Shown: positions 43,199 to 63,964, numbered from the stretch's first letter. The stretch: DNA of 64,000 nucleotides from Acidobacteriota bacterium (GCA_040755995.1 JBFMAF010000036.1:279652-343651), one strand, 5' to 3'. The notes: generated by a model from the letters alone, not told the origin. Numbers and translations: made by a program.

Positions 43199-43331
43199 GT
43201 GGATTCGCGAACATAGCCGCATACGTGAACGGATTTCGGTCTGGAGCACTGTTCAGTCTAGCGCCCGTATGAACGAGGTCGAGTGGCCCGTCGTGCTTCT
43301 CAAGAAACACGGACCGAACAAGGACAAGGAC

Positions 43332-43365
43332 TTGACGTCTTCGAAGCCGTACAGTATCATGTACA
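43332..43365 (+). promoter_or_regulatory. yefM-yoeB promoter/operator
   Basis: TTGACG-N17-TATCAT; CGTACA (43348) and TGTACA (43360) 12 bp apart, resembling the TGTACA operator of E. coli yefM-yoeB. Confidence 0.7.
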
Positions 43366-43369
43366 TATC

Positions 43370-45384: not shown

Positions 45385-45988
45385 CGCGCACGCGACTTCC
45401 GGCGAGCCATCCGGCTCGGCAGACTGCTTCGTCAGGAAGATGAAGCCATCCTGGCGGATCTGGTGCCGCAGACCACTAAGACAATCGTTGACACTGCTTC
45501 CGATTTGCATGATATTCAGCACATGGCCTCACGAATCCCCAAGTTCGACCGAGCGCTCAAGCGAGTCCCCAGGCTGGCCCTCGGCGAGGTAGCTGCAAAC
45601 CTCCACCGCCTCGCCGTCGCGACCCAGCGCGTGCAGCAGGTAGGCGAAGGTGCTGGCGTCTTCGACCGATCGGCCGCTGGTCCATGAGATCCCAGTCGCC
45701 AGCTTCTTCTTGAGACTCGCGATGACCTTGGACTCATCTTCCCTGGCCTCGTCCAGTATCACGCGCGGGAGTTTCGATGTCGATGAGCGAGAGCAGCCGA
45801 CGCTCTGGACGTTGCGTGCTATTCCTGTGGCGGAATCGGCCCAGGGATGCTGGCACGGGTTTCGCTTGCTCGGGACATGAGCAGGGGGCACGCGTGGGCA
45901 CGTGCATGACCGAGTATGAGTATGAGGAAAGAGAAAAGGCGAGTGCTCTTGACGATTTCGTTGTATCGATTCAGAATGGAGGCAGTTT

Positions 45989-47281
45989 GTGGCGAGGAGT
46001 TCTGTCCATATTGAACCAGGGTCCAAGGGGCGCCTAAGGGTGATTATGCCCTATGAGTCGGAGCGAGTGGCGAAGATCAGGGCGAACCCTGATCGGCGCT
46101 GGCATCCCGTAGAGAAGTACTGGACGGTGCCGGACGCCGAGGGAATGCTGCCTCGACTTCTCGCCCTCTTCGCGGGAGAACCGGTTGAGGTGGACCCTTC
46201 GCTTCGTCCGGCTTGCCCGCTAGTCCAGCGCCCGGGGCAATCCGAACCAGCCGTCTGGAGTGGGACAGCAACCCGGCTGACCGTGAGCTCCACAAGGTTG
46301 GATGGGAAGACCACGGGAACTCCGCCATCTCAGTTCCTGGATCGGGTGTACGAGGCCATTCGAGCCCGGCACTACAGCGAACGAACCGAGCAAGCATATG
46401 TGGGGTGGATCAGGCGGTTTGTCGGCTTTCATGGAAACCGGCGTCCGTCGGAGATGGGCGAGGCCGAGGTTAACCGGTTCTTGACCGACCTCGCTGTCAG
46501 CCAGAAAGTGAGTGCCTCAACTCAAAATCAGGCCCTCTCGGCGCTCCTGTTGCTCTATCGGCACGTGTTGAACCGCCCGATGGGTGATCTCGGGCAAGTG
46601 ATCCGGGCTCGGAAGCCGGAGCGCCTCCCCGTGGTCATGACACGCAAGGAGGTGAAGGCCGTGCTGGCGAACTTGAGGGGCGAGAAGTGGCTGCAGGCCT
46701 CGCTCATGTACGGGGCGGGGTTGCTTCTGATGGAGTGCTTGCGCTTACGGGTTCAGGATATTGACTTCTTGCGTAACGAGATCCTTGTGCGAGATGGTAA
46801 GGGCGCCAGAGACCGCATCACGATGTTGCCCCAATCGCTCAAGGCGCCGCTTCAGGAGCATCTCAAGTAAGTCATGGAGGTACACGAACGCGACCTACTG
46901 GAAGGCTGGGGTCGCGTCCTATTGCCGGACGCACTGGACCGCAAGTATCCCAACGCCTCGAAGGACTGGCGTTGGCAATGGGTTTTCCCACAGGAGAACC
47001 GATGGAGGAACCTGAAGACCGGCAAGGAAGGTCGGCATCATATCGATGAATCGCTCATCCAGAAAGCCGTGCGCGAGGCGGTCTCGAAGGCGGGCTTGAC
47101 GAAGCGGGCCACATGCCACACCTTTCGACATTCCTTCGCCACCCACTTGCTCGAAGGCGGGTACGACATCCGGACGGTGCAGGAACTGCTGGGTCACAGC
47201 GATGTTACGACGACGATGATCTATGCGCATGTCCTCAACCGTGGGCCGGCCGGCGTGCGCAGTCCGGTTGACGGACTTTGA
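45989..47281 (+). pseudogene. intI: Integron integrase with extra N-terminal domain; inactivated
   Basis: [10 protein letters not shown], IntI-specific [17 protein letters not shown] patch, [15 protein letters not shown]; in-frame TAA at 46868-46870; catalytic Arg replaced by Leu (CTT 46724). Confidence 0.92.
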
Positions 47282-47429
47282 GGCAATCAGGAGGACTTAT
47301 GCCGATCCGCATAAGACGGGAGGACTGGTCAAGCATCGGACGCAAGTACATGAGCCAGCAGCAGCCATGGCGATTCTGCCAGACGATTCACTCGGGTGCT
47401 ATGCCGACAAGAAACCGAGATTCGGCAGC

Positions 47430-47459
47430 TTATCCGGATCAGTCTAATTATTGTTAGGC
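47430..47459 (+). mobile_element. Putative attI site downstream of intI
   Basis: GTTAGGC core at 47453-47459, the exact complement of GCCTAAC closing cassette 1. Confidence 0.65.
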
Positions 47460-47485
47460 CGCTCAAGGCCGGGGACCGATCAGAG

Positions 47486-48013
47486 ATGATCAAGACTACC
47501 GCTCGCTTGGCGACCCGACTGGGCCTCGTTGTGGCAGTTGTCGGAACGATTGGGTGCGACCGTGTAACAAAGCACTTGGCTACGAGTGCACTCGCGGGCA
47601 TGCCCAGTCGGTCCTATCTCGCCGATACGGTCTGGCTTGGATACACCGAGAATAGCGGCGGGTTCCTGAGCGTTGGCGCCGATCTGCCACCAGGCGCTCG
47701 AACGCTGATCTTCACGTGTGGCACTGGACTGATGTTGGTCGCCCTAAGCCTGCTTGCAATGCGGCACAGGTGGCGCGGCTGGCCAGCGATCGGTTTGGCA
47801 CTGCTTGTCGCCGGTGGTACCTCGAACTGGATCGACCGCGTCGTTCGTGGCAGTGTCGTCGATTTCCTGAATGTAGGCATCGGTCCCCTTCGAACCGGCG
47901 TTTTCAACGTCGCTGACATGGCGATCATGCTTGGGGCAGTCATCGTCGTCGTCAGCTTCCGCCACACGACGAAGGGACCGAGGACTGTGGCCAAGAACGA
48001 CGGCACGGCCTAA
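47486..48013 (+). CDS. lspA: Lipoprotein signal peptidase II (integron cassette 1)
   Basis: CDRVTK, ENSGGF, GG.SNWIDR, VVDF, FNVAD; stop codon lies within attC R''. Confidence 0.9.
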   Translation: MIKTTARLATRLGLVVAVVGTIGCDRVTKHLATSALAGMPSRSYLADTVWLGYTENSGGFLSVGADLPPGARTLIFTCGTGLMLVALSLLAMRHRWRGWPAIGLALLVAGGTSNWIDRVVRGSVVDFLNVGIGPLRTGVFNVADMAIMLGAVIVVVSFRHTTKGPRTVAKNDGTA

Positions 48014-48085
48014 CATGCGCTGCACCCGACGCCGCCCGCGTCGCTCGCGCGCCGCAGTCGGCGCGGGTGAGCGCCAACGTTATAC
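48008..48085 (+). mobile_element. attC site
   Basis: GCCTAAC-ATGCGCTGCACCCGAC ... GCGGGTGAGCGCCAAC-GTTATAC imperfect hairpin. Confidence 0.9.
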
Positions 48086-48115
48086 CGCTGTGCATAGTGC
48101 AGATGGAGGAAGACA

Positions 48116-49261
48116 GTGACCGATGAATGTGTCCGTGACTTTGGACCGTTTACTGGGGTCACGTGGTTGAACTGTGCCCATCAAGGCCCGTTGCCGCGTA
48201 TCGCGGCCGAAGAAGCTTATGAGGCGATAGCGTGGAAAGTCGCCCCTTATGAACTTACCACAGAACGATTCAATCGCGTTCCGGCACGCCTTAAAAGCGC
48301 TTTGGCTCGGCTTATTGGAGCTTCTGCGGATGAGATCATTCTGGGAAATAGTGCTTCCTACGGACTTCACCTCCTGGCTAATGGAATCCCCTGGGGGCAA
48401 GGAGACGAAGTTCTCCTCGTCGCGGGCGACTTTCCATCTGACATTCTCCCGTGGCTGCGGCTCGAAAAATATGGCGTTCGTATCTGCCTACTCCATTGCC
48501 AAAACCCGCTTCCCGATCCGGATGAGCTTGACAGGGCTCTGTCCCCTCGAACGCGGCTCTTTTGCTCCACCTGGGTTCACTCTTTTTCCGGCGTGACCGC
48601 TGATCTCGAAGGACTTGGCTCCGTCCGCCGTCGGAATGGTGTCACCTTTGTCGTCAACGCCTCTCAGGCGCTTGGTGCATGCCCGCTAGATGTACGGGTG
48701 GTTCCAATTGATGCTGTCGTCTGCGTCGGTTTCAAATGGCTGTGCGGTGCCTGTGGAACAGGTTTCTGTTGGATGAAACCGGAGCTATTGGCTTCGCTTC
48801 AGTGCAACCAATCCTATTGGCTTGCCGAAATGACAGCGGATGATTTAGGCAAAGAAAGCGTCGAGCCACATCTGCCAAAGGGTCCGCCCACGGCACGCAC
48901 CTACGATGTGTTCGGCACAGCCAGTTTTTTCAATTTCAAACCTTGGGCGGCCTCGGTAGAGTACCTGTTGGCGAAAGATATCGAACGCATTGCCGCCTAC
49001 GACCAAGACCTTGTGGATCAGCTCAGTGCTGGCCTAGATCCGAACAAATATGCTTTGACAAGCCCACCTGCTGGGGCGGCGCGTTCGACGCTGGTGTTTG
49101 TCTCGCATCGCGACCCCAGGCGTAACGATGAGATCCAAATGAAACTCAAGAATGCTGGCATCGAGGCGGCATATCGGAATGAAAGATTGCGTTTCTCACC
49201 TCATCTGTACCATACAAGTGCAGACATCACAAAAGCGTTGGCTGTGCTCAACGCTGCGTAA
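48116..49261 (+). CDS. Class V aminotransferase-fold PLP enzyme (integron cassette 2)
   Basis: WLNCAHQGP, VVNASQ, FKWLCG, LRFSPHLY; visibly lower GC than its flanks. Confidence 0.85.
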   Translation: MTDECVRDFGPFTGVTWLNCAHQGPLPRIAAEEAYEAIAWKVAPYELTTERFNRVPARLKSALARLIGASADEIILGNSASYGLHLLANGIPWGQGDEVLLVAGDFPSDILPWLRLEKYGVRICLLHCQNPLPDPDELDRALSPRTRLFCSTWVHSFSGVTADLEGLGSVRRRNGVTFVVNASQALGACPLDVRVVPIDAVVCVGFKWLCGACGTGFCWMKPELLASLQCNQSYWLAEMTADDLGKESVEPHLPKGPPTARTYDVFGTASFFNFKPWAASVEYLLAKDIERIAAYDQDLVDQLSAGLDPNKYALTSPPAGAARSTLVFVSHRDPRRNDEIQMKLKNAGIEAAYRNERLRFSPHLYHTSADITKALAVLNAA

Positions 49262-49269
49262 GGGAAGCG

Positions 49270-49296
49270 GTATAACAAGCGCCTATACCGGCGTTC
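49270..49296 (+). mobile_element. Truncated attC (left half) merged with the hydantoinase B stop region
   Basis: GTATAAC complements the GTTATAC opening cassette 2; followed by AAGCGCCTATACCGG; no right arm. Confidence 0.7.
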
Positions 49297-51025
49297 CGCG
49301 CAAGCGGGCGGTCTCCTCTGCGAGCAGTTCGAAGGTGGCCGGATCGAGGGCCACTCTGTAGAGATCGCGGGCGCTTTCGAGCGAAAGGATGCCGTCGCGG
49401 ACTTCCTGCCGCACTTTTTCGATCGGGCGCTCGGTGGGCGGGCCGTAGCCGCCGCCTCCGCCGGCGTGCTGCACGTAGACGGTGCCCGCCGGCACTCCTG
49501 AGATGAGGTCCTTGCTCTTGGCCGTAAGGATGCGGCCGTCGGGATAGTGCAGCTCGATCTTGTTGAGCGTGCCAACGGTTGCGCCGTCGAGACCGAATGC
49601 TGGCTCGACGTCGCCGTCGCCGAAGGCGACAATTTGTGTTGCGTCGCCGCCGACGCGGTAGATCGTTTCAACACCCAGGCCGCCGCGCTGGCGCCCGGCA
49701 CCACCCGAGTCGCGCAGGTATTCGTGTTTGATCAGCGTGTGCGGTGTTGTGTGCTCGAACATCTCGTAGTCCTGGTCGAGCACGCCGCCTGAGGCGTCGA
49801 TCATGCCGATGTGATCGTAGCCGTCGCAATCGCGCATCGCGCCGGAGCCGCCTTTGAGGCCCATGAACAGAATGTCCACGTAGGTGTCGTTGCGGTGCGG
49901 GTTGAGGCCGGTCGAGAGCGAGCAGAGGAGCTGGTTCCACCCGGCCGTCACGCGCTCGGGGATGACGGGCGCCAGCGCACGGATGATCGCGTCGGCGTTC
50001 GGCGGGCAGAGATGATTTCCAAAAGTCGTCGCCGCGGGGTAGGCGGCATTGAGGATCGTCCCCTCCGGGATGACGATCTCGATCGGCTGCAGCATCCCGT
50101 CGTTATGCGGGATATCGGGATTGACCATCTGGAGGAACGTGAGGATCGTGGCCGAAGCGCTCGACGTATACGTCCCGTTGACGAAGCCCTTCGTCTGCGG
50201 GTCGCTCTGAGAATAGTCGAACGTGATGTGCCGGTCCTCGACCTTCACGCGCACTCGGATCTTGAAGGTCGAGCCCTCGTTTTTACCGTCGTAGTAAACC
50301 GTGCTCTCGCCGAAATACTCGCCCTGTGGAATGCGCGCAATCTCGGCCTCCATCATCTTGCGCGACGCTTCGAAGAGATACTCCTTGTGAGCCAGAATCG
50401 CGTCGAGGCCGTACTTGTCGATGAGCGAGAGCAGCCGGCGCTCGCCCACTGTGCACGCGCCGATCTCCGCCCGCATGTCCTCTTCGACGATCGGCAGCCG
50501 GATGTTGGCGAAGATCAACTCCCAGACGTCCCGGCGCAACCTTCCGCGCTCATAGACCTTCACCGCGGGAATCCTCAGCGCCTCCTGCCATACCTCCGTC
50601 GCGTTCGGGTTGTACCCGCCGCGCACGGCGCCGCCAATATCAGCCTGATGTCCTTTGGCCGCCGCCCACCCCACGAGCGTCTCGCCAGAGAAGACCGGCT
50701 TGAACGCCGCCACATCGTTGTTCTGGTTCCCGAACGAGAAAACGTCGTTGTGAAAGAACACATCTCCTGGATAGACCTCGCCGCGAAAGCGCTCGGCGAT
50801 GTGCTTGCACACGGGGCTCAGCGAAAAGCTGAGGATGGGGAGATTCTCGGTCTGCTCGAGCATCCTCCCCTCGGCGTCGTACAGCCCCGTGACGAAGTCC
50901 TTCGCCTCGCACAGGATCGGCGAGCGCGTGGTCTTCTCCAACGTCAGGCTCATCTCATCGGTTATCGCCTTGAATGCGTTGCCGATTATCGCAGCGAGCA
51001 CCTTGTCCGTCTTGGGCTTCATCAT
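49283..51025 (-). CDS. Hydantoinase B/oxoprolinase family subunit
   Basis: RSPIL.EAKD, PGDVFFHND, HQADIGG, QEALRIP, AGRQRGGLG, GGGGGYG. Confidence 0.93.
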   Translation of the reverse strand: MMKPKTDKVLAAIIGNAFKAITDEMSLTLEKTTRSPILCEAKDFVTGLYDAEGRMLEQTENLPILSFSLSPVCKHIAERFRGEVYPGDVFFHNDVFSFGNQNNDVAAFKPVFSGETLVGWAAAKGHQADIGGAVRGGYNPNATEVWQEALRIPAVKVYERGRLRRDVWELIFANIRLPIVEEDMRAEIGACTVGERRLLSLIDKYGLDAILAHKEYLFEASRKMMEAEIARIPQGEYFGESTVYYDGKNEGSTFKIRVRVKVEDRHITFDYSQSDPQTKGFVNGTYTSSASATILTFLQMVNPDIPHNDGMLQPIEIVIPEGTILNAAYPAATTFGNHLCPPNADAIIRALAPVIPERVTAGWNQLLCSLSTGLNPHRNDTYVDILFMGLKGGSGAMRDCDGYDHIGMIDASGGVLDQDYEMFEHTTPHTLIKHEYLRDSGGAGRQRGGLGVETIYRVGGDATQIVAFGDGDVEPAFGLDGATVGTLNKIELHYPDGRILTAKSKDLISGVPAGTVYVQHAGGGGGYGPPTERPIEKVRQEVRDGILSLESARDLYRVALDPATFELLAEETARLRGTPV

Positions 51026-51052
51026 GCCAAAGCTCCCGCGAAGTCGCTCTTG

Positions 51053-51110
51053 GCCACAGAGGCACAGAGCCACAGAGCCGACCCTCTCCGTGCCTCAGTG
51101 TCTCCGTGGC
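51053..51110. repeat. REP-like hairpin of CACAGAG-type octamer units
   Basis: GCCACAGAGGCACAGAGCCACAGAG paired with CTCCGTGCCTCAGTGTCTCCGTGGC (20/25). Confidence 0.7.
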
Positions 51111-51119
51111 AGTACCTTT

Positions 51120-53186
51120 TCATTGGCTCGCCTTCAGCACGACGCTGCCGGCCTCGTCCACTTCCCCCGTATATGCCGCGCTGACGAAGACGGTGGTGTC
51201 GGTGCGCTCGAGCAGCGCGGGCCCGCGGATGACGTTGCCGGCCATCAGCCGGTGCCCGTCGTAGACCGGCACTTCTGCGAAGCTGCCGGACTCCGGCACG
51301 AAGGCCCGCCTGGATCCCTTTCGAATCTCACTCGCATCCGCGCCGCCGCGCGGGTAGCGAGGCAGTGCCGGCGGGCGGGTCCGCCCCAGCGATCGTACAC
51401 GCACGTTGATCAGCTCCAGCCCCGTGCCCTCGGCCTTGAGCTGATATCCGTACAGCCGGTCGTGCTCGGCGTGGAACAGCTCGGCGATCGCCGGCCAATC
51501 TCCCGCCGCGATCAGCTCGGGCGTGACCGGGAGAGTCACCTCGTGGTACTGCTTCAAGTAGCGCAAGTCCAGCGCCACCTGATTTTCGATCGTCCCTGCC
51601 CCCTCGGCCTCAAGCTGCCTCCGCCCCTCGGCCGCCATCTCATCCACCAGGCTTCTCAGACGCTCGCGTCCGATCGCCCCAAGCGGCTCCACGCACGATC
51701 TGACGAAATCATGTTGCAGGTCGCAGAGCAACATGCCGGTGGCACATAGTGTCGATGCGGCGTAGGGGATGATCACGGTTGGGATGTCGAGCTCCGTCGC
51801 GATCATGCAAGCGTGAAGGGGTCCGGCTCCGCCAGCCACCAGCAGCGGGAATTCGCGCGGGTCGAGCCCGCGCTTGACCGTGATCTCGCGCACGCCGTTG
51901 GCCATGTTGCTGTTGATGACCCGGTACATGCCCGCCGCGGCTTCTTCGGTAGAAAGCGAAAGCGGACGCGCGATGTGAACCTCGATCGCGCTGTGGGCGG
52001 CCGTCACGTCGAGCTTCAGCCGCCCCCCGGCGAAGTAGGCGGGGTCGAGGTAGCCGAGCACGAGGTTGGCGTCGGTCGAGGTCGGGCGCTCGCCTCCTCG
52101 CCCGTAGCAGGCGGGGCCCGGCAGCGCGCCGGCCGAAGCCGGTCCCATCCGCAGCAGGCCGCCCTCGTCGATCCACCCGATGCTCCCGCCTCCCGCGCCG
52201 ATCGTGCTGATGTCGAGCATCGGAAGCGCGATCCGCAAGCGGTCGATTTCGCCGTCATGACGCAGTGCGGCAGCGCCGTGGCGCACCAGTGACGCATCGA
52301 AGCTGGTCCCACCCATGTCGACCAGGATGCAGTCGTCGCGTCCCTGCGCCGAAGCGAAGACGGCCGCGGCGCGCGGGCCGCCGGCAGGGCCTGAGAGCAG
52401 TGTCGATGCCGGCAGGCGCTCGGTCGCAGCAGGGACCGCCAGGCCGCCATTCGACTGCATGATCAGCAGCACCCCCGCAAAACCCGCTCCGGCGAGCCTC
52501 GAAGTGAGGTTCTGCATGTAGCCCTTCACCACCGGGCCGACGTAGGCGTTGAGCACAGTTGTCGAGACGCGATCATAGAAACGTATGACCGGCAGCACCT
52601 CTGAGGAGACGCTGGTGAAGAGTCCGGGCAGCGTTTGGCGCACGAGCGCCGCAGCGGCACGCTCGTGAGCCGCGTTTGCATAGGAATGCATGAAGCAGAT
52701 GGCAACGCTCGTCACCCCGTCCCGCCTGAGGGTCTCGGTGGCACGCCCCACCGATCCCAGATCCAGCGGCGCGGTCTCCTCACCACGGAAGTCGATTCTC
52801 CCCGTCACGGGGATGCGAAGCCGGCGTGGCACCAGCGGCACGACATTCTGAAAGCGGTTGTCATACTGTCTTTCTCGGATGCCGCGCCGCATCTCCAGGG
52901 CGTCCCTCACGCCCTCGGTTGTGATAAGCGCCGTAGGCGCCCCGCTTCGTGTCAACACGGCGTTGGTGGCGACCGTAGTCCCGTGGACGATCAGCGATGT
53001 TGCGCGCGCGAAGTCGGCGACCGGCATGCCTCGTGCTTCCGCCATGAGACGGATGCCGTCGAGTACACCCAGCGACGGGTCCTGCGGGGTCGAGAGAACC
53101 TTGAAGGAGCCGACCGATCCGTCCTCCGCCCAGAGGAACAGGTCGGTGAAAGTGCCGCCGACGTCGATGCCTACTTTGAAGCTCAT
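51120..53186 (-). CDS. Hydantoinase A/oxoprolinase family ATP-binding subunit
   Basis: GIDVGGTFTD, HGTTVATN, LLSGPAGG, DMGGTSFD, IGAGGGSI, GGAGPLH. Confidence 0.95.
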   Translation of the reverse strand: MSFKVGIDVGGTFTDLFLWAEDGSVGSFKVLSTPQDPSLGVLDGIRLMAEARGMPVADFARATSLIVHGTTVATNAVLTRSGAPTALITTEGVRDALEMRRGIRERQYDNRFQNVVPLVPRRLRIPVTGRIDFRGEETAPLDLGSVGRATETLRRDGVTSVAICFMHSYANAAHERAAAALVRQTLPGLFTSVSSEVLPVIRFYDRVSTTVLNAYVGPVVKGYMQNLTSRLAGAGFAGVLLIMQSNGGLAVPAATERLPASTLLSGPAGGPRAAAVFASAQGRDDCILVDMGGTSFDASLVRHGAAALRHDGEIDRLRIALPMLDISTIGAGGGSIGWIDEGGLLRMGPASAGALPGPACYGRGGERPTSTDANLVLGYLDPAYFAGGRLKLDVTAAHSAIEVHIARPLSLSTEEAAAGMYRVINSNMANGVREITVKRGLDPREFPLLVAGGAGPLHACMIATELDIPTVIIPYAASTLCATGMLLCDLQHDFVRSCVEPLGAIGRERLRSLVDEMAAEGRRQLEAEGAGTIENQVALDLRYLKQYHEVTLPVTPELIAAGDWPAIAELFHAEHDRLYGYQLKAEGTGLELINVRVRSLGRTRPPALPRYPRGGADASEIRKGSRRAFVPESGSFAEVPVYDGHRLMAGNVIRGPALLERTDTTVFVSAAYTGEVDEAGSVVLKASQ

Positions 53187-53776
53187 GGTGAGACCGCCTT
53201 CATGCCGAGCGCGAAGGCACGGCGGCCGGCTGGTCCCCCAGGGCAGGCCGACTCGACCACGCGCACAATCGATTGAGGATCGAGAGGCAGAATTTGCAGG
53301 GCCGCTAGAGCGCCGAGCATGACCAGGTTGAGTGATCGAGACGACCCCGCGGCTCTCGCAATTGCCGGACCGTCAAGAGTGACAACCTCACACGTCGCCT
53401 CGCGTAGAGCCGACAGCATCCCGCTCAAGTCGGGGTAGGGCAGCCCCTTCTGCGCCAGAGTGAACGGAGGGACCTTCCCGGTGCTGATCACCACGCGCGC
53501 GCGCCGCGAGAGGCGCGGGACCGCACGCAAGGCTTCGATCGGCTCCAGTGCCAGCAGCGCGTCGGCCGCCGCCGGTCCTATGAAGGAGCTGTACCCGGGT
53601 CCGATGACAACCGTGGACTCCACACTGCCACCACGCTGCGACATTCCGTGAAGCTGCCCCAGCACGACCGGCTTTCCTTCTGCGAGCGCGGCTTCTCCCA
53701 GGACACGCGCCACGCTCAGAACTCCTTGGCCGCCGACTCCCACCACCAGCAACCGGAAGCGGCCGTTTGGCGTCAT
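53183..53776 (-). CDS. iorB: Indolepyruvate oxidoreductase beta subunit
   Basis: VGVGGQG, HGMSQRGGSV, LEPIEALR, NLVMLGA. Confidence 0.92.
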   Translation of the reverse strand: MTPNGRFRLLVVGVGGQGVLSVARVLGEAALAEGKPVVLGQLHGMSQRGGSVESTVVIGPGYSSFIGPAAADALLALEPIEALRAVPRLSRRARVVISTGKVPPFTLAQKGLPYPDLSGMLSALREATCEVVTLDGPAIARAAGSSRSLNLVMLGALAALQILPLDPQSIVRVVESACPGGPAGRRAFALGMKAVSP

Positions 53777-56700
53777 GAGCGCTCCAGCGCCGGGCGGATG
53801 GCGCCGTTTGGACAGAAGACAACGCAGACGCCACAGCCGTTACAAGCTCCCGGATCGATTGCGACGTGTCCGTCCGCCAGATAGAAAGCCGGGCAGCCGA
53901 AAAGGTCGATGCACGCGCGGCAGTTGCCGCACATTCCGCAGACCGCACACCGAGCAGCTTCGGTGCGCGCCTGCGCTTCCGTCAGCGCGCCGACGACTTC
54001 ATCGAAGCTGTCAGCGCGCGTGTCCGGCAACAGATGCGGCGGTGCCTGGCGCCAGACATTGTCGGCTCGCCGGTAACGCGTGCGCTGCGTCTGCGGATGC
54101 GGCCATGCACTCATCAGGGGCGCCGGCGGCCGGCGATCCGAGGCTTCAGCACCCCGCAAGGATCGATCGATCCCCCACGCGGCGCGCAAACCCCATGCGA
54201 TCGCCTCTGTAACGGTGCGGGCCCCGCCCGCCAGGTCCCCGCCGGCGAACACGCGCGGGTGGGATGTAGCAGCAGTCTCGCTGTCCACACGAAGCCCGCC
54301 TCCGTCCGTGCGCTCGAGCGCCAGGTCATCGAGGGCAGGGGACTGCCCTGTGGCTAGCAGCACCAAGTCCGTCTCGTAGAGCTCTTCAGAGCCTTCGACC
54401 ACCAACGGCCGCGGCCGCCCGGAAGCATCCGGGGCTCCCGGTTGCGTCCGCGCGAACACCACACCGCCGGCAGCCAGCGCCGTCGGCTGCAGGTGCGTCC
54501 GGACTTCGATGCCCTCTTCCGCAGCCGCATCGATTTCAGTGGCGATGGCCGGCATCTCCTCGCGCCCGCGCCGGTAAGCGATCAGAACGTGAAGCGCGCC
54601 GGCGCGTCGAGCGGTGCGTGCCGCATCGACCGCCGCATTGCCGCCGCCGATCACAACCACCCGCCGCGCCGTGGTGAGGCCGCCATCTTTGGCTCGCTTC
54701 AAGTACGCCAGAGCATCCAGGTGGGGCGGCGCACCCGGTGAGGCCGGAAGATCGAGCCGAGCGGGCATCTGCGCGCCTAACGCGAGGAAGACGGCCGAAT
54801 GCGACTCGACGAGAGCCGACAACTTGATGTCTCGACCCAGGAAACATCCCCCTTGAAAAGCGACGCCGAGCGCGAGGATGCGATCGACATCGCGACGCAA
54901 CGCGTCAGGAGGCAGACGGAACTGCGGGATGCCGTAGCGGAGGAGCCCTCCTGGTTCGGCTTCAGCGTCATACAGGATGACGGCGTAGCCGCGCAATCTC
55001 AGCTCGTGAGCCGCGGCGAGCCCGGCAGGGCCGGCGCCGACGACGGCGACGCTGCGATCGTGATCGGGTTCCTTCGGCGGGTCGTACGGGAGGCGCTCCC
55101 GCCTGGCGGCCCAGTCCATCACGAACCGCTTCAGATCGTTGATCGCAACGGGCCCGTCGTGGCCTGCCCGCACGCAGACTTCCTCGCATGGTTTATGACA
55201 GACGCGGCAGACGGAGTCAGGGAGCGGCAGGCGGCTCATGATGAGCGCGAGCGCCCGCTCGTACTGGCCCGCTGCGATGTGCCCGGCGTATCCCTGGACG
55301 CAAAGGCCGAGTGGACAGTGGACGGCGCAGGGGGCGACCGGCTGCGGCCACGCAGCTTCCGGAGCCGCCGCCGTCCAGCCCTCGAGAGCGCGGCTGCGCG
55401 CCATGTGGCGCTCGTGTCCTCGGGAGATATCCAGATCGCAACGCATTCCGCACCCGCTGCGGCCGCACGTGGCGCAACGATCGGGATCGATCTCGAAAAT
55501 GGTGCGCGAAGATGGCGCGCCTGTCAGTCGCGATTCCCATACCGGGCAAGGATGCTCGACCACGATCACGCTTACACCCTTCGCGTCGCGTGCGCCTTCG
55601 AAAGCCAGGATGGTTCCGGCGAGATCCTTGACGGGATCGACGATCTGGACATCGTTCGCCCCGAGGGCCCTCGCTACGTCGGCTATCGGAGCGCGGTGAG
55701 TGATTTTCCCGTTTTCGAGGCCTGTGGCGGGGCTCTCCTGGAAACCCGTCATGGCGGTCACGCCGTTGTCCAGGATCACGGCCACCATCGAGACGCTTTC
55801 TTTGATGGCGTTCAGCAGCGGCGGAATGCCGGAGTGGAAGAAGGTGGAGTCTCCCATGAAACCGACGGTGCGCTTGCCGGTCATGCGCGAAACACCTGCG
55901 GCCAATGTGAAGCCCGCTCCCATGCACAGCAAAGCATCAGCCGTATCAAGAGGCGGTCCGAAGCCCAGGGTGTAGCAGCCGATGTCGCTGAAGAAAAGCT
56001 GGTCTTCGGGGAAAGCCGCGCGGGCTGCGAAGTACGTCGCACGGTGGGGACAGCCGGAGCAAAGCACGGGGGGCCGCGCAGGAAGATCGGCGGTCCCGGG
56101 CGCCGGCGCCGTAGCGCTGTGAGGGGTCCCTAATCCGAACGCATCAAAGAGCGCACGCGCGATGATCTCCGGCGTGTACTCGAAAGGCTCCGGCAGATGG
56201 CCCGATCGTTTTCCCAGGGTGGTCACGCTCAGTCCATGACGCGCCGAGAGCGCGAGCAGCGTGTCCTCGATAAACGGAGACAGCTCCTCCAGGACGAGTA
56301 CCTTATCCGCGCGTCTAAGCAGGTTCACGAGCGCCTGCTCCGGGAACGGATAGACTCCACGCATTGTGGCGAGAGCCACGTTGGCCTCGGCCCCGAGCTC
56401 GTGGAGCACATCCGCGCACGTGGCAGCGGGGGCGCCGGATGCGAGGACGATACATGCACCTTCGCCCTCGACCCTGAACAGCTCTTCCATGGTTCTGCGC
56501 GCCGTATCCAGTCGCTTGGGGATTTGCATCCGCATGACACGCGCGTTGGCCGGGATCGGCACCAGCCGCCGCGGGTCGCGCTCGAAGCCCCGTACCTCAC
56601 GCGTGCCCAGCGCGCCGTAGAGCACCGGAGCCCGCGTGTGCGCCACACGCGTCGTGATTCGGAGAAGCACAGGGAGGCTGCTGCGCTCGGACAGCTCGAA

Positions 56701-57189
56701 GGCGAGGCGCGTCAGTGTGAGCGCGTCCTGTGGGGTCGTGGGATCCAGCACCGGAATGTGCAACATCGGCCCCAGGTACCGCTGGTCCTGTTCGTTTGGG
56801 CTCGTTAGACAGGATGGGTCGCCGGCGCTCACGATGACCATACCACCCCGCACGCCGATGTAGGGAATGGTCGTGAGCGGATCGCCCGCCACCATCAGGC
56901 CGAGGTGCTTCATGGCGGTGATGGCGCGAGCGCCGGCCAGTGAGGCCGCGAACGCCATCTCGATCGCAACCTTCTCGTTGACCGAGTACTCGAAGACGAT
57001 GCCGGCCCGCTTCGCCAGCCTGGCGAAAGCGTCAGTTACTTCAGAGGACGGTGTTCCCGGATAACCGCTGGCAAAGGCGACTCCCGCTTCGATCGCGCCT
57101 CGAACGACGGCCTCATTGCCGAGCAGCAACACCGCGCGCCCGGGCGCGTCCAGGAGCAGCGGACTTGCTTCATGGGTATCCTGAAGCAT
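53773..57189 (-). CDS. iorA: Indolepyruvate oxidoreductase alpha subunit with inserted GltD-like FAD/NAD(P)H module
   Basis: GNEA, GYPGTPSSE, NEKVA, DIGCY, GDSTFFHSG, DN..TAMTG; then PC..HCP, CRVCHKPCE, GAGPAG, GGGNAA; terminal 2x[4Fe-4S] motifs. Confidence 0.9.
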   Translation of the reverse strand: MLQDTHEASPLLLDAPGRAVLLLGNEAVVRGAIEAGVAFASGYPGTPSSEVTDAFARLAKRAGIVFEYSVNEKVAIEMAFAASLAGARAITAMKHLGLMVAGDPLTTIPYIGVRGGMVIVSAGDPSCLTSPNEQDQRYLGPMLHIPVLDPTTPQDALTLTRLAFELSERSSLPVLLRITTRVAHTRAPVLYGALGTREVRGFERDPRRLVPIPANARVMRMQIPKRLDTARRTMEELFRVEGEGACIVLASGAPAATCADVLHELGAEANVALATMRGVYPFPEQALVNLLRRADKVLVLEELSPFIEDTLLALSARHGLSVTTLGKRSGHLPEPFEYTPEIIARALFDAFGLGTPHSATAPAPGTADLPARPPVLCSGCPHRATYFAARAAFPEDQLFFSDIGCYTLGFGPPLDTADALLCMGAGFTLAAGVSRMTGKRTVGFMGDSTFFHSGIPPLLNAIKESVSMVAVILDNGVTAMTGFQESPATGLENGKITHRAPIADVARALGANDVQIVDPVKDLAGTILAFEGARDAKGVSVIVVEHPCPVWESRLTGAPSSRTIFEIDPDRCATCGRSGCGMRCDLDISRGHERHMARSRALEGWTAAAPEAAWPQPVAPCAVHCPLGLCVQGYAGHIAAGQYERALALIMSRLPLPDSVCRVCHKPCEEVCVRAGHDGPVAINDLKRFVMDWAARRERLPYDPPKEPDHDRSVAVVGAGPAGLAAAHELRLRGYAVILYDAEAEPGGLLRYGIPQFRLPPDALRRDVDRILALGVAFQGGCFLGRDIKLSALVESHSAVFLALGAQMPARLDLPASPGAPPHLDALAYLKRAKDGGLTTARRVVVIGGGNAAVDAARTARRAGALHVLIAYRRGREEMPAIATEIDAAAEEGIEVRTHLQPTALAAGGVVFARTQPGAPDASGRPRPLVVEGSEELYETDLVLLATGQSPALDDLALERTDGGGLRVDSETAATSHPRVFAGGDLAGGARTVTEAIAWGLRAAWGIDRSLRGAEASDRRPPAPLMSAWPHPQTQRTRYRRADNVWRQAPPHLLPDTRADSFDEVVGALTEAQARTEAARCAVCGMCGNCRACIDLFGCPAFYLADGHVAIDPGACNGCGVCVVFCPNGAIRPALERS

Positions 57190-57196
57190 GACAAGA

Positions 57197-57225
57197 AGAT
57201 TAGGCCCAAAGGGGTGATTCGTCAA
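57197..57225 (-). promoter_or_regulatory. Putative leaderless sigma70 promoter of the ior-hydantoinase operon
   Basis: TTGACG-N17-TAATCT, 7 nt before ATG 57189. Confidence 0.6.
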
Positions 57226-57333
57226 GTTAGACTGGGGGGCCCCTGGGCTACTTGGCTGTTGGGCGGCCGGGTCACGCGCGCCCGGGCGAGCCGTTTCGTC
57301 CAGGACCGAAGTAGCGTCCGAGACTGCACGGAC

Positions 57334-58008
57334 CGTGCCGTGCTGAAAGAGTGCTGGAGGCTACAGTACATCTCACCCGAGGACTACCACAGGGCGATCG
57401 ACTTCCGAACGGTCCGGGGCGAGACATTGCCCCGCTGCCGCGCGCTCACGCAGGGAGAAAGGAGAGATATTTTCTCGGCATGCTCGATAGACGAGACGCC
57501 GGCGGGCGTGCGCGACGCGGCGCTTCTGGCAGTGCTCTACGGCGCAGGCCTGCGTCGAACCGAAGCGGCGGCTATCGAGCTTGCCGACTGCAGGGACCAC
57601 GGCCGCGAACTCGTCGTGAAAGGCAAGGGAAGGAAAGAGCGCATGGCTTAACTCCCGCGTGGCGCGGCCGAAGCCCTCGCCGGATGGCTTGGAGCCAGGG
57701 GAGAACGGCCGGGAGCGCTCTTCCTCCCCATCAACAAGGGCGGAAGGATACTCAAGCGCCGCATCACCTCACAGGCGATCTATCTCCACTTGGTCAAGCG
57801 TGCGAAGCAGGCGCGGACCGGCAGGTTCTCCCCACATGACCTGCGCCGGAGATTTGTCAGCGATCTCTTGGAGGCCGGCGCCGATCTCGCCACCGTCCAG
57901 AGGCTCGCCGGGCACTCATCGATCGATACAACCAGGCGCTACGATCGCCGCAGCGGAGAGACGAAGAGACGCGCCGTCGAGCTCCTCCACGTGCCGTACA
58001 GGACGTGA
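57334..58008 (+). pseudogene. Tyrosine recombinase, 5'-truncated with in-frame stop
   Basis: YGAGLRR, KGKG, HDLRR, AGH, RYDR; TAA at 57649-57651 with the frame continuing. Confidence 0.88.
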
Positions 58009-58417: not shown

Positions 58418-58540
58418 TCAGGTGGCTCTGTATTTCGCCAGCGGAGCCACCCAGGACAATTGTCCACCGAGTGCCTGGCACAACTTCGCGTCTGCTGTTA
58501 CGAAGGTCGCCTTGAGGGATTCTGCCAGTGCCAGGTACGT
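58418..58540 (-). pseudogene. C-terminal fragment of a VapC PIN toxin
   Basis: TYLALAESLKATFVTADAKL; directly abuts the truncated TIG domain. Confidence 0.7.
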
Positions 58541-60807
58541 ATGGCGCCGAAGCGCTGCCCGATGATTGTGATGCTGTCGCCGACCTTCCCGGATGACGGC
58601 GAGATCCGTTCGATCAGCGGCGCCTCGGGGGCGACAGGCTTGCGAGTGTACGAGTAGACCCCGCAGGAGGTGGCTGCGATCAAGGTGTTGCCGTCGCTGG
58701 GGTGGAAGAGAACGTCTGACATCCAGAATGGCCCGAGTCCGGTGGAATCGAACGCACTCCAGGTCTCCGCTTCGTCTGTCGAGATCATCACGGTGCCATA
58801 TCCGGCGGCGATCAGCGTACGCGTGTTCGTCGGGTCGATTGCGAGAGCCCAGGCATACAGATTCGTCAATCCGGTGTTGACGGCCTTTCAGCTAGTAGCA
58901 CCAGCGTTGGTGCTCTTGAACACGCCGCCACCCGAGCCCGCGTAGACGGTTGCCGGATTCGTCGGGTCGATCGCAAGAGCGTAGACATACAGACTCGTCA
59001 GTCCTGTGTTGACCGCCTTCCAGCTAGCGCCACGGTTGGTGCTCTTGAATACGCCGCTACCGCCAGTGCCCGCGTAGACGGTTGCCGGATTCATCGGGTC
59101 GATCGCAAGAGTGCAGACGTACAGATTCGTCAATCCTGTGTTGACGGCCTTCCAGCTAGCACCACGGTTGGTGCTCTTGAATACGCCACCAGCGTAAGTG
59201 CCCGCGTAGACGGTTGCCGGATTCGTCGGGTCGATCGCAAGAGTCCAGACATAGTCAGTGGTCAATCCCGTGTTGACGGCCTTCCAGCTAGCACCAGCGT
59301 CGGTGCTCTTGAATACGCCAGTACTCCAAAGGCCCGCGTAGATGGTTGGCGGATTCATCGGGTCGATCGCAAGAGCGTAGACACGCGGACTCGTCAATCC
59401 TGTGTTGACGGCCTTCCAGCTAGCACCACGGTTGGTGCTCTTGAATACGCCACCGTTCAAAGTGCCCGCGTAGACGGTTGCCGGATTCGTCGGGTCGATC
59501 GCAAGAGCGAAGACATACAGATTCGTCAATCCTGTGTTGACGGCCTTCCAGCTAGCACCACCGTTGGTGCTCTTGAATACGCCACCGTTCCAAGGGCCCG
59601 CGTAGACGGTTGCCGGATTCGTCGGGTCGATCGCAAGAGCCCAGACATCCAGATTCGTCAATCCTGTGTTGACGGCCTTCCAGCTAGCACCACCGTTGGT
59701 GCTCTTGAATACGCCGCCACCGCCAGTGCCCGCGTAGACGGTTGCCGGATTCGGCGGGTCGATCGCAAGAGCACGGACAAGCAGACCCGTCAACCCAGTG
59801 CTGACGGCCTCCCAGCCAGCACCACGGTCGGTGCTCTTGAATACGCCGCCACCCCAAGTGCCCGCGTAGACGGTTGCCGGATTCGTCGGGTCGATCGCAA
59901 GAGCCAAGACCCACAGATTCGTCAATCCTGTGTTGAGGGCCTTCCAGCTAGCACCACGGTTGGTGCTCTTGAATACGCCACCCCAGGTGCCCGCGTAGAC
60001 GGTTGCCGGATTCGCCGGGTCGATCGCAAGAGCGTAGACACGCCGCCTCGTCAATCCTGTGTTGACGGCCTTCCAGCTAGCACCAGCGTTGGTGCTCTTG
60101 AATACGCCGCCATGGTAAGTGCCCGCGTAGACGGTTGCCGGATTCGTCGGGTCGATCGCAAGAGCCAAGACATACAGATCCGTCAATCCTGTGTTGACGG
60201 CCTTCCAGCTAGCACCAGCGTTGGTGCTCTTGAATACGCCGCCGCCGTCAGTGCCCGCGTAGACGGTTGCCGGATTCGTCGGGTCGGTCGCAAGAGCGTA
60301 GACATACAGATTCGTCGATCCGGTGTTGACGGCCTTCCAGCTAGCGCCGCCGTTGGTGCTCTTGAATACGCCACCAGCGTAAGTGCCCGCGTAGACGGTT
60401 GCCGGATTCGCCGGGTCGATCGCGAGTGCGTAGACATACAGATTCGTCGATCCGGTGTTGACGGCCTTCCAGCTAGCGCCGCCGTTGGTGCTCTTGAATA
60501 CGCCACCAGCGTAAGTGCCCGCGTAGACGGTTGCCGGATTCGTCGGGTCGATCGCAAGAGCCAAGACATACAGATTCGTCAATCCTGTGTTGACGGCCTT
60601 CCAGCTAGCACCAGCGTTGGTGCTCTTGAATACGCCGCCATGGTAGGTGCCCGCGTAGACGGTTGCCGGATTCGTCGGGTCGACCGCAAGAGCCCGGATG
60701 TCGCCCCCATAAGGTCCATGCGTTGTCCAGACGTTGTTCCCTCCCGAAGCCACGGTGGCGGTCAGCGCGAGCACACTCAGTGCGGAACACCAAGGGAACG
60801 TTTTCAT
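58498..60807 (-). pseudogene. Secreted BNR beta-propeller protein with truncated IPT/TIG domain; in-frame TGA
   Basis: Signal peptide, 14 near-identical plus 2 diverged blades, TGA at a Trp position (58888-58890), then ISPSSGKVGDSITIIGQRFG. Confidence 0.85.
58862..60700 (-). repeat. Tandem array of 14 coding repeats of about 132 bp
   Basis: Unit ALAIDPTNPATVYAG...GVFKSTN.GASWKAVNTGLT, conserved at synonymous sites. Confidence 0.97.
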
Positions 60808-61451: not shown

Positions 61452-62339
61452 TCAACGGCGTAGCCCAGTACCGCGCGTGGAGCGCGAGGCCTGGCGTCGG
61501 CGCCGACACTGTCCAGGCGGTTCCGTCGGCCGGAGCGGCCTGGGCGCTCTCGCGTTCAATAGCTCCTCTTCGATCCTGCCCAACTCCATACAGACGTGCC
61601 GCATGTGAGCGCCCCGCAACGGTCCTGCCAGCTCGTTGAGAGCGCGAACGAACGGCCGAACAAGCTTGAGCATCTCCTTGTCAAGTGTCGATATGCTGAG
61701 ACCCTCTAGCAAATCTACGCTGCTCATTAGGACTTCGTAGAGGGGGAGTGGCTCACTCTGCATGTCGCGCTCACTAGTCATCGCGCGCGTCAGGGCAAGG
61801 ACTTCTTCTAGGATGTCGCGCTCACTGCGCGGCGCGCTGTCGGCATTGGGCTGGTGCTTTTCCAGCTGCGCGTTCACTTGCTTGTGTAGGTCGGGCCACC
61901 ACTTGCAGAAAACAGATTCCAAGACGTGTGGGACAAGGGCGGCTTCTCCCAGTTCGCTGTTCATCATCTTGACGAGGCGCTTCATATCGACTCTGTCGAA
62001 CCGCGCTGCCTGAAACTGGACGAGCGGGCCCTTGACATCGCTAGGTTCCAGACCGCCCAGAAGAATCGGACAGACTTTGGACCGATCGAGGTTCTTCCCG
62101 AGGGCGCCAGCCTCGAAGACTAGCCAGGGAGCATTCTGGTTTTCGGGAGTCAAGACGAGAAGGCCGATTCGTGACGCATCAAGTTCCCTGGAAATCTCAG
62201 AGTTCCACCGAGCGCCTTTCACAATGTCGTCCGGGGTGAAGTAAGGCCGGACGGCTTGCAGGACACTGGGAAGCCACTGACGCAGAATCTCTGCAACGGC
62301 ACGGCTGCGTTCGCCAGACCAACTGATGAAGACCTTCAT
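61452..62339 (-). CDS. TIR-domain protein
   Basis: MKVFISWSG, DIVKGARW, PWLVFEAGA (catalytic Glu position); AGGAG RBS. Confidence 0.88.
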   Translation of the reverse strand: MKVFISWSGERSRAVAEILRQWLPSVLQAVRPYFTPDDIVKGARWNSEISRELDASRIGLLVLTPENQNAPWLVFEAGALGKNLDRSKVCPILLGGLEPSDVKGPLVQFQAARFDRVDMKRLVKMMNSELGEAALVPHVLESVFCKWWPDLHKQVNAQLEKHQPNADSAPRSERDILEEVLALTRAMTSERDMQSEPLPLYEVLMSSVDLLEGLSISTLDKEMLKLVRPFVRALNELAGPLRGAHMRHVCMELGRIEEELLNARAPRPLRPTEPPGQCRRRRQASRSTRGTGLRR

Positions 62340-62399: not shown

Positions 62400-63383
62400 T
62401 TAGATCCCGATTCGTTCGATCTCATCGAGCGTGATTTGATCCGTGGTCCGATCGTAGAGCTTCGTCGTACGTGGCGATTCGTGGGCCGCTATCTGCTGAG
62501 CGTGCTCAAGGGTCCCTCCGCCCTGCAGATAGGCCGTGATTCCCGTTGCGCGAAAGGTATGGCAGCAACACTCCGTGTCGATGCCGGCCGCGCGGACGCG
62601 CCGGCGGATCATCCGCCATGCATCGCTCTGACGCATGGGGGTGTGGGTAAGGGGACGTCCTGGCCCCTTGGCGACGGTTCGAAACAGAGGCCCTTTCTTG
62701 TCGTCCCGGATTCCGGCCGCTTCAATATACGCGTCGACGGCGGCCTCGGCTTTGTGATGGGCGGGGACATCGTGGCGCTTGCCGCCCTTTTCGTGCAGGC
62801 GGAACCACCACCGCTTGCCCTGCGGATAGTAATCCTCGACCTTCATTGTGAGAGCGGCGCCGATTCGGGCGAAGCTATAGACCAGGAGGCTGATGAGCGC
62901 CTTGTCGCGAGGTGCGACAACGGACCCGGTGTCGATACTATCGAGGAGGTTGCGGGCCTCCTCGACCGTGAGAACGGGCGTCCTGCCGCGCTTGACCACA
63001 TGCCTCGGCCCGCGCACGGAGCTCGCCGGGTTCCCAGTGACGACGTTCCCGACGACGAGCCAGTCGAAGAGCATGCGAACGGCGGCGAGGCGCTGCTTCA
63101 CGGTCGGCTTGGAGTGGGTGGTCTGCAGATCCTCGAGCCAGGCCGCAACGATCGACGGCCCGATCCCGCTGAGATTCGAGATGCCGCGCTCTCCGCACCA
63201 AGCGAAGAAGTCCGAGACGGCCCGCGCGTACGCGCGTCGCGTGTTCCGATTCCTGATGTTGGCGGTGAAGAACTCGATGAAGCGCAGCTGCGTCCTCTCG
63301 CCGGCGCCGGCGATCGCCGCCGGCAGGCCAGCGAATCCGGCCCTTGCGAGCGCCATGGGGACAGGCACGTCGGTGCTCATCAC
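62400..63383 (-). CDS. Tyrosine recombinase (resolvase/integrase), intact
   Basis: FARIG (R), EKGGK, HTFRATG, AHES, LYDR. Confidence 0.93.
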   Translation of the reverse strand: MMSTDVPVPMALARAGFAGLPAAIAGAGERTQLRFIEFFTANIRNRNTRRAYARAVSDFFAWCGERGISNLSGIGPSIVAAWLEDLQTTHSKPTVKQRLAAVRMLFDWLVVGNVVTGNPASSVRGPRHVVKRGRTPVLTVEEARNLLDSIDTGSVVAPRDKALISLLVYSFARIGAALTMKVEDYYPQGKRWWFRLHEKGGKRHDVPAHHKAEAAVDAYIEAAGIRDDKKGPLFRTVAKGPGRPLTHTPMRQSDAWRMIRRRVRAAGIDTECCCHTFRATGITAYLQGGGTLEHAQQIAAHESPRTTKLYDRTTDQITLDEIERIGI

Positions 63384-63631: not shown

Positions 63632-63964
63632 TTACTCGAGAATTGGTGCGACCTTCGCGAGCACTTCATCCACGATCGCATCGGGCGCGCTTTCCAGCCT
63701 TTTGCCGCCACGCGCCCCAAGGTCAAGCGCGCGCGGCTGGTCGCAACGAACGAGGCCAGTGGTCTGAGTTCCAGCTCCGGTTAGCGGCACGGCGAAGCCA
63801 GCCGTTCGAGCGAAGCTCCCGGCGCTCGTGATCGGCAGGACTACGGGGACCTTGGTCAGCCGGTTGATGGCTCCCGGCGAAACGACAAACACAGGGCGGC
63901 GGCCTTTTTGCTCGTGTCCCGATGTTGGGTCGAGGCTGACCAGCCAGATCTCTCCGCGCTTCAT
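63632..63964 (-). CDS. pemK: PemK/ChpB family toxin
   Basis: MKRGEIWLVSLDPTSGHEQKGRRP, RCDQPRALD. Confidence 0.93.
   Translation of the reverse strand: MKRGEIWLVSLDPTSGHEQKGRRPVFVVSPGAINRLTKVPVVLPITSAGSFARTAGFAVPLTGAGTQTTGLVRCDQPRALDLGARGGKRLESAPDAIVDEVLAKVAPILE

Follow-up and report, generated by a model that had tools for sequence, protein, structure and literature searches.

An IorA with a GltD-like cassette inside its ferredoxin domain heads an iaa-like gene cluster and may act as an NADP+-linked indolepyruvate oxidoreductase

Two 2-oxoacid oxidoreductases are said to combine with a flavin module, such that a pyridine nucleotide replaces ferredoxin: Euglena PNO, reportedly an NADP+-linked pyruvate:ferredoxin oxidoreductase (PFOR) with an appended cytochrome-P450-reductase module, and Aromatoleum Pad, reportedly a phenylglyoxylate:NAD+ oxidoreductase with a separate flavoprotein subunit. 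To our knowledge, neither is an indolepyruvate oxidoreductase (IOR) with an inserted GltD-like cassette. Here we describe a gene of this kind, iorA-gltD, in a 64,000-nucleotide stretch of DNA from an Acidobacteriota bacterium (GCA_040755995.1, JBFMAF010000036.1:279652-343651; hereafter the window). The canonical IOR, for which we use IorAB of Pyrococcus and Thermococcus (TIGR03336/TIGR03334) as reference, is an α2β2 ferredoxin enzyme (PMC12016516 and PMC9765128). For the cassette, the closest described systems are StnC of Sporomusa ovata (8OH5) and NfnA (9BOV, 9N5U); in the StnC module, K170 ligates the FAD-proximal cluster, the FAD is non-bifurcating and a linear wire leads from FAD/NADPH (PMC10482914). 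For the gene neighborhood, the reference is the iaa pathway of indoleacetate breakdown in Aromatoleum aromaticum and Aromatoleum evansii, which as published begins at indoleacetyl-coenzyme A (CoA) (PMC8360864), has the hydantoinase-like ring opener IaaCE (PMC8453981) and ends in 2-aminobenzoyl-CoA (PMC9613470).

The iorA-gltD gene (53773-57189; minus strand, like iorB and all cluster genes below) is a single open frame of 1138 amino acids. Its ATG start at 57189 agrees with the N-termini of homologs, and an in-frame TTG also occurs at 57225. Pfam recognized POR_N (31-191), PFOR_II (247-304) and TPP_enzyme_C (402-544), followed in the distal part by Fer4_20 (619-697), Pyr_redox_2 (713-998) and Fer4 (1110-1132). 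TIGR03336, the IorA model, covered residues 20-576 at 613.9 bits, below its curated cut-off of 650.9, the match being broken by the insert into model segments 3-556 and 536-595. The IorA order of POR_N, PFOR_II, thiamine pyrophosphate (TPP)-binding and 2[4Fe-4S] domains was found together with the TPP and proximal-cluster motifs, the ferredoxin domain being split but of IorA type. The catalytic part (aa 1-563; 55501-57189) carries YPGTP and the TPP motif GDSTFFHSG..N475, with key residues kept in 120-121 of 121 close sequences, and its fold matched PFOR/OOR/OGOR at Z 32-34. By analogy, we take C377/C380/C405/C548 to be the ligands of the proximal [4Fe-4S] cluster. An ATGA overlap joins iorA to iorB, encoding the IOR beta subunit (53183-53776), which has the POR Pfam domain and whose top NCBIfam matches are IorB models, all below their cut-offs (TIGR03334, 162.8 bits against 205.8). 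A scan for a promoter and terminator upstream of iorA detected none, and in the host genome (G000, 99.84% complete) the fused copy was the only IorA-like gene found. Although it falls below the model cut-off, the 1138-aa protein is largely an IorA, also in its mode of action.

The initial annotation of this gene had described an IorA with a complete GltD-like NAD(P)H oxidoreductase inserted before its ferredoxin domain. The fusion itself proved real, since the one open frame here is matched by the same architecture in 120 of 121 aligned proteins. All motifs that had been quoted were recovered, namely CATCGRSGCGMRC (572-584), GAGPAG (718-723), GGGNAA (848-853), GCPA (1098-1101) and CNGCGVC (1116-1122). 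In the domain-architecture search that had been suggested as a check, 120 of the 120 homologs among the matches listed carried TPP_C, Fer4_20 and Pyr_redox_2, and 119 also POR_N, at 52-81% identity. When 270 proteins were classified, 148 were full-length fusions (120 among the 121 close sequences, which include the query, plus 28 among 149 further cluster representatives), 76 were unfused IorA and 46 were others. Carriers with a name were metagenome-assembled genomes (MAGs) of Acidobacteriota, Planctomycetota, Acidimicrobiia, Gemmatimonadota, Myxococcota-type and Krumholzibacteriia, and a full-length copy was present in 1 of 30 relatives of the host genome (not counted as independent), so that the distribution is patchy. 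Remnants of mobile elements do flank and interrupt the gene cluster of the window, which would speak for the misassembly that the initial annotation had allowed for, or for a chance chimera. Against this stand the 148 full-length fusions from many assemblies, the presence of the fusion in MAGs of several phyla and the invariance of the junction Cys; this recurrence across homologs, assemblies and phyla rules out an artefact, to which we give a negligible chance.

The position of the insert is where the initial annotation needed correction. We compared profiles built from the C-termini of 70 unfused IorA and of 30 PRK12771-type proteins. The unfused-IorA profile matched residues 535-584 (from the last Cys of the TPP domain through the first ferredoxin strand to CxxC) at 23.5 bits and residues 1087-1134 at 58 bits, while the PRK12771-type profile reached only 17 bits on 1087-1138. 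All 125 fusions scored higher over this ferredoxin half with the IorA profile (mean, 57 bits) than with the PRK12771 profile (mean, 21 bits). The tail is accordingly IorA's own, and the cassette interrupts the first Cys motif of the ferredoxin domain instead of preceding the domain. Beyond the catalytic part, the protein is thus made up of the start of the IorA ferredoxin domain (aa 564-615; 55345-55500), with the first strand, CxxC (C572, C575), C584 and a linker helix; the circularly permuted GltD-like cassette (aa 616-1086; 53932-55344); and the rest of IorA's own 2[4Fe-4S] ferredoxin domain (aa 1087-1138; 53773-53931). PRK12771/DsrL-like flavoproteins also combine a GltD-like body with a 2[4Fe-4S] domain at the C terminus, and some are encoded beside genes for 2-oxoacid:ferredoxin oxidoreductases (OFORs), but they are stand-alone proteins whose cluster has Glu (PMC7596348), whereas the cassette here groups apart from them and is followed by IorA's own ferredoxin half. 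An appended PRK12771 protein was rejected by the ferredoxin-profile test and the trees, and membership in PRK12771 (NF009410) was likewise not supported (428.7 vs. 516 bits; Lys not Glu; separate clade; IorA-type ferredoxin half).

Structure prediction was consistent with a domain that closes around its insert. An AlphaFold2 model of the protein (predicted local distance difference test [pLDDT], 92; predicted template modeling score, 0.86) contained strands 565-567 and 1131-1133. Docking of residues 556-615 on 616-1138 in a complex model scored 0.85, against 0.00 for the best control, the runs sharing at least 84% of contacts with a partner pLDDT of at least 74; the mark it passed was reached by 116 of 157 solved pairs and by 2 of 215 mismatched pairs, and since the docked pieces belong to one chain and resemble solved ferredoxins, passing it denotes likeness, not binding. 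In the complex model, residues 565-568 contacted I1131, C572 contacted A1130 and C575 contacted C1087, strands 565-567 and 1131-1133 were paired, and the linker helix packed over the region of the first Cys motif. As modeled, the split ferredoxin domain re-forms from its two pieces.

By sequence, the best solved relatives of the cassette were NfnA/StnC (phmmer, E 1e-75 to 1e-90), which were also matched by structure at Z 38.8-40.1 and a root mean square deviation (rmsd) of 2.2-4.3 Å over 464-494 residues; matches to NfnB, NfnI-L and GltD were weaker (Z 31.6-31.9). Residues 615-1131, that is, the cassette with the ferredoxin half, fell on StnC 98-671 (Z 38.8, rmsd 2.2 Å, 464 residues). The cassette showed the GltD fold, FAD and NAD(P) Rossmann sites, two clusters and permuted termini of an StnC/NfnA-type module. 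The EA.RCxxC segment, which opens ordinary GltD, comes last here (C1081, C1084), as in StnC, and in this permuted order both cassette ends meet at the distal cluster, which would make the module insertable in a loop. The predicted ligands are C621/C672/C1081/C1084 for the distal cluster and C625/C664/C668/K687 for the FAD-proximal cluster. Counted on the phmmer alignment, K687 corresponds to StnC K170 and R758 to StnC R239 (NfnB R201). All 121 close sequences had K687, the putative Lys ligand, as did 23 of 28 distant representatives, and neither R758 nor the glycine motifs for FAD and NAD(P) varied. At the NADP(H) site, Y872-R873-R874 forms a YRR motif of the type tied to NADP(H) use in DsrL and NfnB (PMC7596348), and the query copy is predicted to use NADP(H). 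YRR was found in 72 of the 121 close sequences, and the other 49, which end in Glu and may use NAD(H), were scattered over the tree, which suggests repeated shifts to NAD(H). The module thus resembles StnC and NfnA in its permuted order ending in EA.RCxxC, its predicted Lys-ligated cluster, its YRR motif and a 2[4Fe-4S] domain at the same relative place. In contrast to these, its host is a TPP enzyme rather than a NuoG-like subunit, its gene runs hold no bifurcating StnB/NfnB partner, StnC C114 is replaced by V/I with an invariant Cys one residue earlier, and the predicted direction is NADP+ reduction.

Altogether, 23 candidate ligand Cys were kept in 119-121 of the 121 close sequences: 4 for the proximal cluster, 8 for the two ferredoxin clusters and 7 for the cassette, with 4 left over. 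The extra Cys cluster of the initial annotation held up in part, as C572, C575 and C584 were present in 121 of 121 sequences but C580 in only 56; C630 was also found in all 121. C584 and C630 occurred together in 22 of 28 distant representatives, and the other six, which lack C630, also lack C584, save one misaligned Cys in P0163. C661 was kept in 1 of the 28. Since C575 contacts C1087 in the complex model, C630 lies at the interface and conserved Cys are left over, the simplest reading is a possible junction metal site formed by C575/C584/C630/C1087; C1090 instead of C575 is an alternative.

We then consider the genes that follow iorB. Hydantoinase/oxoprolinase A (51120-53186), which shares an ATGA overlap with iorB, and hydantoinase/oxoprolinase B (hyuB, 49283-51025) are IaaC/E-like. 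Parted from these by ~15 kb of inserted DNA (34114-49282; three diverged hyuB fragments, integrase halves and toxin-antitoxin toxins) are an IaaF-like acyl-CoA dehydrogenase with GGG instead of YEG (32995-34113), an IaaGH-like B12-dependent acyl-CoA mutase with fused small and large subunits (30971-32998), an IaaL-like family III CoA-transferase (29662-30876) and xanthine-dehydrogenase-family FAD (28805-29665), [2Fe-2S] (28356-28808, the tblastn match range) and molybdenum subunits (25957-28512, the longest open reading frame [ORF], its true start probably lying further in). The iaa-like set of the window is thus split into 25957-34113 and 49283-53186. Across fusion loci, the conserved downstream order was iorB, hydantoinase A/B, acyl-CoA dehydrogenase, B12 mutase, family III CoA-transferase and molybdenum hydroxylase, a hydratase/dehydrogenase and a thiolase also being present in some. 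At least one iaa-like gene besides iorB was found in 20 of 27 fusion loci (L005 and L007 being near-duplicates); four were too short (<1.5 kb of flank) and three were without. Conversely, the cluster was found in 0 of 21 control loci, which gave single weak matches only, and in 1 of 80 loci of more distant IorA relatives. The GGG motif, which marks IaaF among acyl-CoA dehydrogenases (PMC8360864), was present in 12 of 12 acyl-CoA dehydrogenases of fusion loci and in the window copy. In the seven loci with the full run from iorB through hydantoinase A and B, dehydrogenase and mutase to CoA-transferase, gaps were at most 163 bp and thus left no room for a CoA ligase gene; for the ligase IaaB and the binding protein IaaM alike, these seven runs had no gap big enough, a genome-wide search not having been made. 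TrpB2 lay directly upstream in 1 of 27 fusion loci (L016). Together, these data make iorA-gltD the first gene of an anaerobic indoleacetate cluster of iaa-like type; indolepyruvate is therefore the probable substrate. The likeness to the Aromatoleum pathway comprises the hydantoinase-like pair, family III CoA-transferase, B12 mutase, GGG dehydrogenase and molybdenum hydroxylase, with the hydratase/dehydrogenase and thiolase in some loci; the difference is iorAB at the head instead of IaaM and IaaB, by which the pathway would be fed from indolepyruvate. For the molybdenum enzyme, IaaP and IaaA, we presume their roles in that pathway. Such fusion-headed clusters occurred in MAGs of Acidobacteriota, Planctomycetota, Actinomycetota, Gemmatimonadota and Myxococcota.

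Some further observations concern the cluster. A supposed conserved 247-aa gene turned out to be a shadow frame and was dropped. Two Acidimicrobiia loci (L006:1-3391 and L029:1-6585) carry another set of hydantoinase, acyl-CoA dehydrogenase and mutase genes, which has diverged (30-49% identity), likewise shows GGG and is transcribed away from the fused iorA. For benzoyl-CoA reductase, the best BzdQ-like match in the host genome scored under the cut-off; the genome has a heme-copper oxidase subunit. An NADH:flavin oxidoreductase gene (old yellow enzyme/FadH-like) lies at 17572-19542, 6 kb past the molybdenum-enzyme genes.

Considering fusion, cassette and gene context together, we hold with moderate confidence that IorA-GltD and IorB form an indolepyruvate:NADP+ oxidoreductase (CoA-acylating) that would feed indoleacetyl-CoA into an iaa-type pathway. 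Cofactors, electron path, acceptor, substrate and direction are here those we infer from the observed sequence, its conservation and gene context and from the modeled fold and domain reassembly. The reaction would be indolepyruvate + CoA + NADP+ → indoleacetyl-CoA + CO2 + NADPH via an internal wire. As expected from membership in the IOR family, TPP would decarboxylate indolepyruvate and CoA would take the acyl group. Two electrons would travel singly from the proximal cluster to both clusters of the re-formed ferredoxin domain, onward possibly through the junction metal site to the distal and Lys-ligated clusters of the cassette and to FAD, which would reduce NADP+ by hydride transfer; by redox potentials, this direction would be downhill. 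Indoleacetyl-CoA would then enter the neighboring pathway with neither indoleacetate uptake nor an ATP-dependent CoA ligase. The arylpyruvate:NAD(P)+ oxidoreductase without ferredoxin put forward by the initial annotation hence stays the best-supported reading, favored by the conserved ligands, the StnC/NfnA match and the ferredoxin half lying on the StnC wire, but "self-contained" does not apply, as the adjacent IorB is required. Compared with IorAB, with which it shares the catalytic domains, the TPP and proximal-cluster motifs, a CxxCxxC-x5-CPA ferredoxin domain and an adjacent iorB, the fusion has ~520 extra residues in the ferredoxin domain (FAD, NAD(P) site, two clusters, possible junction site), and its predicted acceptor is NADP+, not free ferredoxin.

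Several points weigh against this proposal. The host genome encodes free ferredoxin-like ORFs and other 2-oxoacid oxidoreductases, so that nothing forces the avoidance of ferredoxin, and the unfused IorA of locus L188, nested among fusions, keeps the same iaa-like cluster, which makes the cassette dispensable for the pathway. Three loci (L010, L023, L026) have longer flanks yet no iaa gene, and the iaa assignment of the cluster is based on the gene set and GGG motif only. Furthermore, IORs accept several arylpyruvates (PMC9765128, PMC12016516), other acyl-CoA dehydrogenase branches also show GGG-like deviations (PMC8360864), and the functional meaning of a Lys versus a Glu ligand is "far from clear" (PMC12018979).

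The free ferredoxins and several other OFORs of the host also favor a branched enzyme, in which free ferredoxin is still reduced at the IOR half. The cassette would then be a ferredoxin:NADP+ reductase, or an overflow valve, on a tether, and could draw on the cell's ferredoxin pool as well. The ferredoxin domain is retained whole, loss of the cassette is tolerated, and RnfC was not found in the 99.84% complete host genome, so an outlet from ferredoxin to NADP would be useful. We nevertheless consider this arrangement unlikely, although it is the alternative we take most seriously, because the cassette joins the chain at the first Cys motif, which in PFOR is the site of the distal, ferredoxin-facing cluster, the linker helix covers that region in the model, and repeated splicing into the same loop would be needless for a general reductase. 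The electron path could also be as proposed but the substrate another aryl- or heteroaryl-2-oxoacid, the cluster then being an iaa paralog for a different ring. This is what the divergent second gene sets of L006 and L029 would fit, as would iaa orthology drawn from gene set and GGG; no characterized IaaF was among the best 120 matches of the window acyl-CoA dehydrogenase (plasmid matches reached at most 44%), and no ortholog of the 3-hydroxyacyl-CoA dehydrogenase/hydratase or the thiolase was found in the window, the best host-genome matches being 33% and 37%, elsewhere. However, the set of lactamase, molybdenum hydroxylase (its role as presumed above), CoA-transferase, B12 mutase and GGG dehydrogenase fits the iaa pathway, and TrpB2 adjoins in L016, so we regard a different substrate as doubtful.

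A bifurcating or confurcating FAD working with a trans-acting partner, or reductive carboxylation driven by NADPH, appears very unlikely. The fold does match NfnB (Z 31.6-31.9) and the NfnB R201/StnC R239 equivalent is invariant, but the FAD-proximal cluster has Lys rather than the Glu of NfnAB (NfnSL), as in the non-bifurcating FAD of StnC/NfnA, and the context is that of a catabolic pathway. The gene runs contain no NfnA/NfnS- or HydB-like gene, and the contiguous ones have no room for a small [2Fe-2S]/FAD subunit gene (elsewhere in the genome not searched). A broader and improbable extension of our NADP+-reducing proposal would make the four-Cys junction a new Fe-S site, brought about by splicing of the cassette into the ferredoxin loop, that controls electron flow between NAD(P)+ and an external carrier. 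The fusion would then be a hub through which the whole indoleacetate pathway shares electrons, the IaaF-type dehydrogenase among its users; the anaerobic electron acceptor of that dehydrogenase is an open question (PMC8360864). More generally, permuted GltD cassettes would be reversible plug-ins, repeatedly employed, that turn ferredoxin enzymes into NAD(P) enzymes. Of this, repeated gain and loss of the cassette is supported, whereas the hub role is speculation.

The history of the fusion was traced on trees of both parts. In the cassette tree, the C630/K687 type formed one starred clade (15 rows; SH-like approximate likelihood ratio test, 98), and the remaining IorA-GltD fusions were spread over four or more separate positions. 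That all fusions share one origin was rejected by an approximately unbiased (AU) test (p-AU 0.001), in which 24 rows were set against 16 on a quick LG+G4 tree using 40 of 90 rows, the group having been set by architecture after an earlier tree had been seen. A "Lys clade" with a FastTree support of 0.998 was left open by IQ-TREE, so that the trees point to no one donor of the cassette. Insertion styles also differed: minimal after the first Cys in P0147, P0161 and L180, and a simple append in P0163. In the IorA tree, the unfused L188, L194, P0159 and P0150 nest in starred clades otherwise made up of fusions; on these quick, midpoint-rooted trees, where recombination could mimic the pattern, the cassette appears to have been lost from them with the ferredoxin domain restored. 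IorA-GltD fusions thus appear to have arisen several times and then been lost again. P0171, a 734-aa IorA that keeps both junction remnants with the flavin core gone, is an apparent intermediate of such loss.

Other architectures were seen alongside. P0129 and P0162 are triple fusions that join IorA, GltD and IorB in a single chain and would represent true one-subunit versions. A similar cassette sits within an HdrA-like protein, P0232, of the type called HdrL. Most of L027-L062, and L091, hold what we take by motif to be NuoF-like proteins ending in a permuted Lys-type GltD cassette, in Aminicenantes-labeled MAGs and in the host genome. Among 80 metagenome IorA loci, 76 had unfused or cut-off IorA and 4 had minimal-insert fusions; none was of the distant C630 type.

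The remainder of the window is rich in remnants of mobile elements. Three hyuB fragments (34260-34637, 39209-39454 and 42992-43249) are 86-90% identical to hyuB at the DNA level, and two of them correspond to its 3' end, as if islands had integrated here repeatedly, with the 3' end of a protein-coding gene as their target. An integron-like tyrosine integrase (45989-47281) is divided into two ORFs by a stop at 46870; further tyrosine recombinases are broken at 57172-58008, just upstream of iorA, and intact at 62400-63383. Two PemK/MazF-like toxin genes, one YoeB-like toxin gene and one TIR-domain protein lie at 42500-42871, 43618-43869, 63632-63964 and 61452-62339. A BNR/sortilin-like repeat protein (58498-60807) has near-identical ~45-aa repeats and an apparent frameshift near 58870.

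We found no published description of an IorA-GltD fusion in a search whose coverage was outside subscription journals, and the accessible portions of reviews on GltD-like modules and Nfn fusions (PMC8097209, PMC6405883) did not show an IOR fusion. GltD-like modules, and reportedly PNO, already embody this design principle, so the fusion is less of a surprise. If the proposal is true, a two-subunit enzyme would make acyl-CoA and NADPH from an aromatic 2-oxoacid without ferredoxin, with possible use in engineered pathways. The family offers natural comparisons between YRR (NADP-type) and Glu (probable NAD-type) members, several independent insertions in one loop and clean losses, variants that together show how evolution swaps an enzyme's electron acceptor. 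For uncultured Acidobacteriota, Planctomycetota, Actinomycetota, Gemmatimonadota and Myxococcota, the fusion would provide an entry of tryptophan to oxygen-independent breakdown of the indole ring.

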